64,000 bases of DNA from Escherichia coli (GTDB lineage: Bacteria > Pseudomonadota > Gammaproteobacteria > Enterobacterales > Enterobacteriaceae). The notes under the pieces are model-generated. The model was not told the origin of the DNA. It saw nothing but the letters and a program-made list of their open reading frames with translations, and made no database searches. The translations under genes and the position numbers were made by a program. Positions 6,641 to 6,910 of this stretch are shown here, piece by piece (positions within the stretch are counted from its first letter, which is position 1; each line of letters starts with the position of its first letter). The DNA lies in assembly GCF_001677475.2 (NCBI RefSeq), contig NZ_CP015229.1; one strand, written 5' to 3'.

Positions 6641-6910
6641 AATAATTCCACAATTGACTGCAACGTCACGTAATAGTTGCGCGGCGTGCTTGTGTTTCCT
6701 TAAAGTTAAAACTTTGATACAGATCTGATTATTTATGCAATATGCTGTCTGATTGCATAAATATACATTAGCTGAAGCGTGATGATATAAACAATTTGCG
6801 TCTTTTGGCGTCGGGTTTGTTTCTTAATATGTCAAAAGATTGGCTATCGACGAACAGGCGAGGTAACGCTATGTTAACGGAGTAGCTATCAGAATACGGA
6901 AGGCGCGAAG

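Follow-up and report, generated by a model that had tools for sequence, protein, structure and literature searches.

A perfect inverted repeat on the dtpD promoter of Escherichia coli as the probable core of an ArgR operator

The ARG operator is composed of two 18-bp boxes (consensus WNTGAATWWWWATTCANW), which are separated by 3 bp and overlap the promoter, and in which the most conserved positions are G4, A6, T7, A12 and T13 (PMC6640053). The ArgR i-modulon described in PRECISE contains 13 genes, given as argA-I, artJ, carA, yagI and 'dtgD' (Sastry et al. 2019, PMC6892915, Supplementary Data 2). The last of these names is a machine misreading of dtpD, as E. coli has no dtgD, the COG class fits and a similar slip ('dmIA' for dmlA) is found in that file, a machine-read PDF; the membership of dtpD in the i-modulon rests on that reading. 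No open-access paper text was found that links ArgR and dtpD in a meaningful way, the link being an undiscussed entry in the i-modulon supplement, and dtpD is not named in the main text of the ArgR ChIP-exo paper (PMC4381063).

DtpD is the least understood of the four peptide permeases of E. coli, and no regulator site on its promoter was found in the searchable literature. DtpC and DtpD are atypical POTs, and DtpC favours dipeptides with a C-terminal lysine or arginine through the acidic pocket residue D392, which corresponds to D395 in DtpD (PMC9309889); D395 is present in the DtpD encoded by the DNA analyzed here. This DNA is a stretch of 64,000 nucleotides (the window), in which a perfect inverted repeat lies on the dtpD promoter. 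This repeat is probably the core of a predicted ArgR operator that would lower dtpD expression when arginine is abundant, ArgR acting as a repressor being the most likely identity and mode of action given the sequence match, the conservation and the co-expression described below.

The inverted repeat and the dtpD and ybgI promoters

The repeat sits within the 270-bp gap between dtpD (minus strand) and ybgI (plus strand), two genes whose identity follows from BLAST to 5,421 complete E. coli genomes and from the K-12 annotation. It is composed of two arms of 12 nt that are 100% complementary, TATTTATGCAAT (6730-6741) and ATTGCATAAATA (6752-6763), separated by a non-palindromic spacer of 10 nt (ATGCTGTCTG), and the centres of the arms are 22 bp apart, that is, two helical turns, on the same face of the helix. 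No perfect inverted repeat of 12 bp with a spacer of up to 20 nt appeared in 5,000 dinucleotide shuffles of the dtpD-ybgI intergenic region, and the analytic chance expectation is 5e-4, so the repeat is far beyond chance. In the whole 64-kb window 5 such repeats were observed against 0.09 expected. Four further perfect inverted repeats, with arms of 12-14 bp and spacers of at most 15 bp, are found in the window at 35576-35607, 54879-54909, 22533-22571 and 53663-53696, the last of which (ACACGACCAGAA) shares the 12-N10-12 geometry. The repeat sequence is identical in K-12 MG1655, and 5,229 of 5,422 E. coli genomes (96%) show 100% identity over the 62 bp that enclose it, whereas the surrounding 1 kb reaches at least 99% identity in only 1,264 of 5,423.

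The transcription start sites (TSS) of both genes were mapped by Kim et al. 2012 (PMC3415461, supplementary file 2), that of dtpD at NC_000913.2 741892 (minus strand, 113-nt 5'UTR, 3 reads) and that of ybgI at 742021, and the 51-mer upstream sequences given there were used to place them on the window (6753 and 6882, respectively). On the dtpD promoter the repeat extends from -10 to +24, with its right arm covering most of the TATATT hexamer and the start site, and it is located 119-152 bp upstream of the ybgI start. A reading made earlier from the sequence alone (the sequence-only reading) had reported a perfect repeat with a 10-bp spacer in the divergent promoter region of dtpD and ybgI; repeat and spacer are as described there, but the arms are of 12 and not 11 bp, and the element belongs to the promoter of dtpD and not to that of ybgI. 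The coordinates of all features are collected in Table 1.

Table 1. Genes, promoter elements, repeat arms and predicted regulator sites of the dtpD-ybgI region (window coordinates; positions with a sign are relative to the dtpD start site)
Feature	Position	Strand	Details
dtpD CDS	5159..6640	minus	493 aa; POT-family dipeptide permease; pocket residue D395 present
Predicted ARG box L, ATTGCATAAATAATCAGA	6724..6741	minus	+13 to +30; 17.0 bits, rank 2/63,983; 10 bp from box R
Left arm, TATTTATGCAAT	6730..6741	.	+13 to +24 of dtpD; inner half of predicted ARG box L
Predicted ARG box M, ACAGCATATTGCATAAAT	6731..6748	minus	+6 to +23; canonical 3-bp-spaced partner of box R
Spacer, ATGCTGTCTG, 10 bp	6742..6751	.	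holds 3-bp linker (CAG, minus strand) and start of canonical box M
Predicted ARG box R, AATGTATATTTATGCAAT	6752..6769	minus	-16 to +2; 14/16 vs WNTGAATWWWWATTCANW; 19.6 bits, rank 1/63,983
Right arm, ATTGCATAAATA	6752..6763	.	-10 to +2 of dtpD; inner half of predicted ARG box R
dtpD TSS	6753	minus	inside right arm; 3 reads, one dataset (PMC3415461)
dtpD -10 hexamer TATATT	6760..6765	minus	TG before it at 6766-6767; invariant in 15/15 genomes
Cra-like site, GCTGAAGCGTGATG	6771..6784	plus	-18 to -31 of dtpD; perfect left half GCTGAAGCG (6771-6779)
ybgI promoter	6847..6882	plus	-35 TCGACG (6847-6852), 17-bp spacer, -10 TATGTT (6870-6875), TSS 6882
ybgI CDS	6911..7654	plus	

The -35 and -10 hexamers of the ybgI promoter are conserved across genera, and Cappable-seq agrees with the ybgI TSS at 6882; the promoter elements TATCGACG and ACGCTATgTTA (6845-6882) are likewise kept across genera. 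A strict sigma-70 scan called no promoter. A secondary plus-strand TSS has been mapped by Cappable-seq at 6713 (U00096.2 741852), with a score of 15 against 133 for the main ybgI start, and a possible promoter for it is formed by TTGCGC (6677-6682) and TAAAGT (6701-6706). RNA starting there would cross the repeat toward ybgI, antisense to the dtpD 5'UTR.

That the repeat folds in a transcript, as a leader, an attenuator or a stability element, is a next to negligible possibility. The plus-strand RNA from the weaker start at 6713 would hold the whole repeat, and the hairpin is present in the minimum-free-energy fold, but this fold is no better than that of shuffled sequences (z=-0.19), no U-tract follows the stem and no Rfam match was obtained. 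The dtpD mRNA starts inside the right arm and, therefore, cannot contain the stem, and its 5'UTR is unstructured (z=+1.16). Furthermore, the left arm has substitutions in Citrobacter, Salmonella, Kluyvera, Pseudocitrobacter and RIT691, none of them matched by a compensatory change in the invariant right arm, so that the RNA hairpin is largely refuted. The Rfam scan of 6300-7300 returned only a sub-threshold S15-leader match inside dtpD, and the terminator scan found none at the repeat and one weak, unrelated terminator-like site at 6798-6811. The dtpD 5'UTR also contains a C/A-rich stretch, GGAAACACAAGCAC (6686-6700, minus strand), that is kept in Escherichia, Citrobacter and Salmonella and that we take to resemble the GcvB-type sRNA target sites on amino-acid and peptide transporter mRNAs.

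Predicted ARG boxes, their conservation and their spacing

A reference set of 22 ARG boxes was located on the K-12 sequence at 11 known ArgR-regulated control regions (argR, argE/C, carAB, argF, argA, argD, artJ, artP, argG, argI and hisJ), and a symmetrised position weight matrix (PWM) built from them was used to score 63,983 window positions. The two highest scores are those of the predicted boxes R and L, the next-best position in the window reaching 13.4 bits. Genuine strong boxes of the reference set score 14-22 bits in a leave-one-out analysis, and by this measure the predicted boxes R and L are as good as the real boxes of argF, artJ and carAB. Box L, like box R, agrees with WNTGAATWWWWATTCANW at 14 of 16 positions, both are imperfect 18-bp palindromes, as ARG boxes are, and box R carries G4, A6, T7, A12 and T13. 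Close look-alikes of the repeat arm are found at artJ (ATTGCATATAAATTCACT), artP (ATTGCATAATTATTCTGT) and argR (TTTGCATAAAAATTCATC). In a background of 558 kb of other Enterobacterales DNA only two positions score at least 17 bits, and both are themselves boxes on dtpD promoters; such a score is expected at random at about 4e-6 per position, and two boxes of at least 17 bits within 46 bp at about 1e-6. Box R covers the TATATT of the mapped dtpD promoter, in agreement with the promoter overlap that characterizes ArgR operators (PMC6640053). A third ARG-like box, TATGAATAAACACGCATC, is located over the dtpD start codon (6624-6641, minus strand); it scores 12.7 bits, and 13.8 bits at the same place in Citrobacter, and may be a reflection of the Met-Asn-Lys coding sequence.

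For the comparison across genera, a YbgI scan of species-representative genomes provided 80 loci, in only nine of which dtpD is the divergent neighbour. The exact 14-mer TGCATAAATATACA is present in all nine dtpD-adjacent loci and in none upstream of ybgI in the other loci (about 70 species); since it is found only where dtpD adjoins ybgI, the element travels with dtpD. These nine were aligned with six more dtpD loci (from Salmonella, two Klebsiella-type genomes, Yokenella, Intestinirhabdus and Scandinavium), giving an alignment of 15 sequences, while the 'DtpD' genes of Hafnia and Serratia, whose context differs, were left out of the footprint. The DtpD-annotated genes of these two genera (60-67% identical) lie directly 3' of a lysine/ornithine decarboxylase gene and not beside ybgI; this context is cadA/DtpC-like, and the annotation as DtpD may be imprecise.

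In the alignment two blocks are invariant, read in the dtpD sense: TGTATATTTATGCA (-14 to -1) and GCATATT (+9 to +15), with about 8 variable bases between them and flanks that cannot be aligned. Box R scores 10.4-19.9 bits in the 15 genomes, from about 11 genera, whereas the left arm and box L are kept (5.5-17 bits) only in the clade of Escherichia, Citrobacter, Salmonella, Superficieibacter and Intestinirhabdus. Klebsiella, Yokenella, Scandinavium and RIT691 have lost the left arm but retain the invariant right arm and GCATATT, and the perfect 12/12 symmetry of the arms is found, among the 15 sequences, in typical E. coli only. Per-position conservation correlates with the information content of the ARG box (rho 0.41, p 0.009), a 39-bp ARG template slid along the region finds its best register exactly at -16, and it is precisely at the N/W positions and the 3-bp linker of this template that conservation falls off. 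An invariant 14-bp core followed, after about 5 variable positions, by a conserved half-element reproduces the layout of tandem ARG boxes, suggesting recognition by ArgR.

These data bear on most of what the sequence-only reading had proposed. Its view of the repeat as operator-like DNA in the dtpD/ybgI control region is borne out by the ARG-box matches and by the conservation across genera, and the conservation in close relatives on which it had made its suggestion depend was found, box R being present in all 15 genomes. Two half-sites for a dimer, as it envisaged, do not describe the element, whose arms are the inner halves of two separate, internally palindromic 18-bp ARG boxes, the unit that hexameric ArgR recognises; nor is the long perfect symmetry what has been conserved, as the invariant part across genera consists of the right arm, the next 5 bp outward and a portion of the spacer, whereas the left arm decays. 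The factor that it left unnamed is most probably ArgR.

The same conservation bears on two other explanations. It is highly improbable that another symmetric regulator recognises the 12-N10-12 palindrome as such. The arms are perfect, their centres stand 22 bp apart on the same helix face, and the 10-bp spacing is unlike the canonical ArgR geometry; against this, it is one arm of the palindrome that is lost in four of the lineages compared, no second copy of the motif exists in the window or in the 558 kb of related loci, and ArgR covers both the sequence and the expression data. It is unlikely, too, that there is no dedicated regulator at all, the invariant block being the dtpD core promoter and the palindrome a lineage-specific accident. 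The most conserved 14 bp coincide with the TG, the TATATT and the discriminator, the perfect symmetry has the narrow distribution given above, and box M does not exceed chance in E. coli. However, a discriminator and the positions +9 to +15 are not normally invariant across genera whose flanks cannot be aligned, two boxes of this strength so close together are hardly expected, the conservation drop matches the ARG template, and there would be no explanation for the co-expression with the ArgR regulon. Part of the invariance of box R may nonetheless be due to promoter function, as the box overlaps the -10 hexamer and the discriminator.

The predicted ArgR operator departs from the canonical one in its spacing. 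Boxes R and L are 10 bp apart, with their centres separated by 28 bp instead of the canonical 21, whereas each of the 11 reference operators has only 2-3 bp between its strong boxes (2 bp at argR). The canonical partner of box R, box M, keeps the same left half (GCATATT) in every genus; taken as a whole, however, it scores no better than chance in E. coli, with -3.5 bits (P=0.067). In Klebsiella, Scandinavium and RIT691, which lack box L, box M reaches 4.3-8.3 bits (P about 1e-3 to 6e-3), and Kluyvera and Yokenella have essentially box R only. The mirror-image canonical register (box L together with 6745-6762) scores -7.7 bits, a poor value that is due to the non-palindromic spacer.

When exactly 7 bp (and no other length) are removed in silico from the E. 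coli sequence, a canonical operator is obtained, whose 36.6 bits (R and L combined) equal the level of argF and argI (37-39 bits). In E. coli the start of the box is repeated in tandem over 7 bp (ACAGCAT followed by ATTGCAT). From box R to the ATG there are 109-112 bp in both the E. coli and the Klebsiella-type classes, which leaves a net insertion of 7 bp relative to the Klebsiella-type genomes unsupported, so that the duplication is a reading of the sequence only. It is conceivable, if rather doubtful, that Escherichia, Salmonella and Citrobacter have a working ArgR site with a non-canonical architecture, in which two full-strength boxes with centres 28 bp apart flank a conserved half-box remnant; such a site would need a different engagement of the hexamer and may derive, via the 7-bp tandem repeat, from a canonical 3-bp operator such as Klebsiella-type genomes still have. 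It may be, for example, that three box-like elements are contacted by all six DNA-binding domains, the DNA being wrapped, or that two hexamers take part. The 10-bp spacing, set against the canonical operator of Klebsiella, offers a natural experiment on the need of the ArgR hexamer for the 3-bp linker, and it is the sole part of the finding that goes beyond routine.

Expression of dtpD and candidate regulators

In 49 PRECISE samples the correlation of dtpD is higher with artJ (r=0.87) and argF (r=0.84) than with any control, although much of this raw correlation comes from samples treated with paraquat or iron chelator, where the expression of unrelated genes drops as well. When these growth-arrest samples are removed, the correlation of dtpD with argF and artJ is about 0.6, while rlmC, phr and ybgI are near 0. 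In addition, dtpD follows a replicate-to-replicate difference in the ArgR regulon. The response of dtpD is small, at about 1-2 log2, compared with 4-5 for artJ and argF. The expression of dtpD tracks the ArgR regulon, and this evidence is correlative. ybgI and dtpD are anticorrelated in PRECISE (r=-0.56), and ybgI is up with iron chelator and paraquat. Another member of the ArgR i-modulon, xynR/yagI, tracks argF and is located in K-12 immediately 3' of this gene on the same strand, so its co-variation is likely to reflect read-through from argF rather than an ARG box of its own.

According to the proposed mechanism, arginine-loaded hexameric ArgR would bind box R together with box M and/or box L, and would block the access of RNA polymerase to the -10 element and start site of dtpD. 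Transcription of dtpD would be lowered in this way under plentiful arginine, as at artJ, artPIQM and hisJQMP, and the rationale would be that DtpD serves as an arginine-scavenging route by taking up dipeptides ending in lysine or arginine. An ArgR operator on dtpD gives this permease a testable role, the scavenging of such dipeptides under arginine limitation, and would account for the presence of dtpD in the 13-gene i-modulon; otherwise it would be a routine addition to a well-known regulon.

Recognition by CytR, a LacI-family regulator with a flexible linker that binds inverted octamers like GTTGCATT, is very unlikely, even though its octamers may stand 10-13 bp apart, according to the SELEX passage of PMC3454398. 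The arrangement tATGCAAt-N10-aTTGCATa fits the core, the orientation and the spacing of such a site, with 6 of 8 positions matched in each octamer and the hexamer core intact, and CytR sites may have their TGCAA/TTGCA-type octamers in inverted or direct orientation, 0-3 helical turns from each other; the genes listed as induced under anaerobiosis in Shigella include ybgH alongside tsx, nupC, nupG and udp; and an information-theory scan for GalR, also of the LacI family, gave a weak match at 741888, which is the repeat centre. This GalR match is, however, absent from the ChIP-chip data. Moreover, CytR is an anti-activator that binds cooperatively with cAMP-CRP, between two CRP sites upstream of the promoter, whereas the repeat occupies -10 to +24. 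The best CRP-like sites (7/10, without G5) are centred at +33.5 and -32.5, with none at -41.5 or about -90. Conservation runs 5-6 bp past the octamer (TATACA) and follows the ARG-box profile, and dtpD is in the ArgR i-modulon and not in that of CytR or Crp. Finally, dtpD is no higher with cytidine as nitrogen source, a weak argument given that the authors noted that cytidine failed to activate the CytR targets.

Cra (FruR) has been reported to repress dtpD, a new Cra target whose promoter fragment is shifted in EMSA and whose expression is lower on acetate and succinate (PMC8085971). That the repeat is the Cra operator is nevertheless barely plausible: it agrees with GCTGAANCGNTTCA at only 7 of 12 positions, and the best Cra-like site, with a perfect left half (GCTGAAGCG), falls just outside the repeat, where other genera show no conservation. 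At the place of this site (6771-6784) the GTDB representative E. coli, E. albertii and other genera have unrelated sequence. The 6771-6784 site probably accounts for the published EMSA shift, with Cra acting beside the repeat and not through it.

Other factors were considered and discarded. Consensus scans for CRP, FNR, GalR and PurR found nothing above 8/10-8/12. An FNR-like site, TTGATacagATCTG (6714-6727, 8/10), is at +27 to +40, the wrong place for activation; it overlaps the outer half of box L and is kept in the Escherichia/Citrobacter/Salmonella clade. The anaerobic induction of Shigella ybgH amounts to log2 1.64, and its expression drops in an fnr mutant (-1.6, -1.2). A sigma-54 promoter was rejected by inspection, the -24 GG being absent on both strands. 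LexA has been claimed, on the basis of BPROM, for a 'dtpD' clone that was left unspecified (PMC7606416); although similar to the AT-rich core of an SOS box, the block is devoid of the essential CTG...CAG.

Comparison with known operators

The operators of CytR at deoP2, udp, cdd, nupG and tsx share with the dtpD site the inverted TGCAA/TTGCA cores and a spacing of about one helical turn, but dtpD has no flanking tandem CRP sites, the position on the promoter is the wrong one, and conservation and expression point elsewhere. The control region of lrp (PMC6640053) is similar to that of dtpD in having ARG boxes located partly or wholly downstream of the start, with a weak regulatory effect; in lrp both boxes are downstream and have the canonical spacing, whereas at dtpD the -10 element and the start site lie under box R. 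The consensus and the presumed mechanism, steric exclusion of RNA polymerase, are shared by dtpD with argF, argI, carAB P2 and argECBH, from which it differs in spacing and, seemingly, in a much smaller amplitude (about 1-2 against 4-5 log2).

The artJ, artPIQM and hisJQMP operators have, like dtpD, 18-bp ARG boxes that start with ATTGCATA and overlap a sigma-70 core promoter, and their targets are also uptake systems for arginine-containing substrates. A strong box is combined with a weak one at artJ, artP and hisJ, as at dtpD. The boxes of these three operators are 2-3 bp apart, whereas in E. coli the strong boxes of dtpD are separated by 10 bp and the 3-bp partner is at chance level, and the dtpD boxes extend to +30, further downstream than the usual -35/-10 overlap. 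With the 3-bp spacing provided in E. coli only through a weak partner, the predicted dtpD site belongs, by its sequence, with the ArgR operators.
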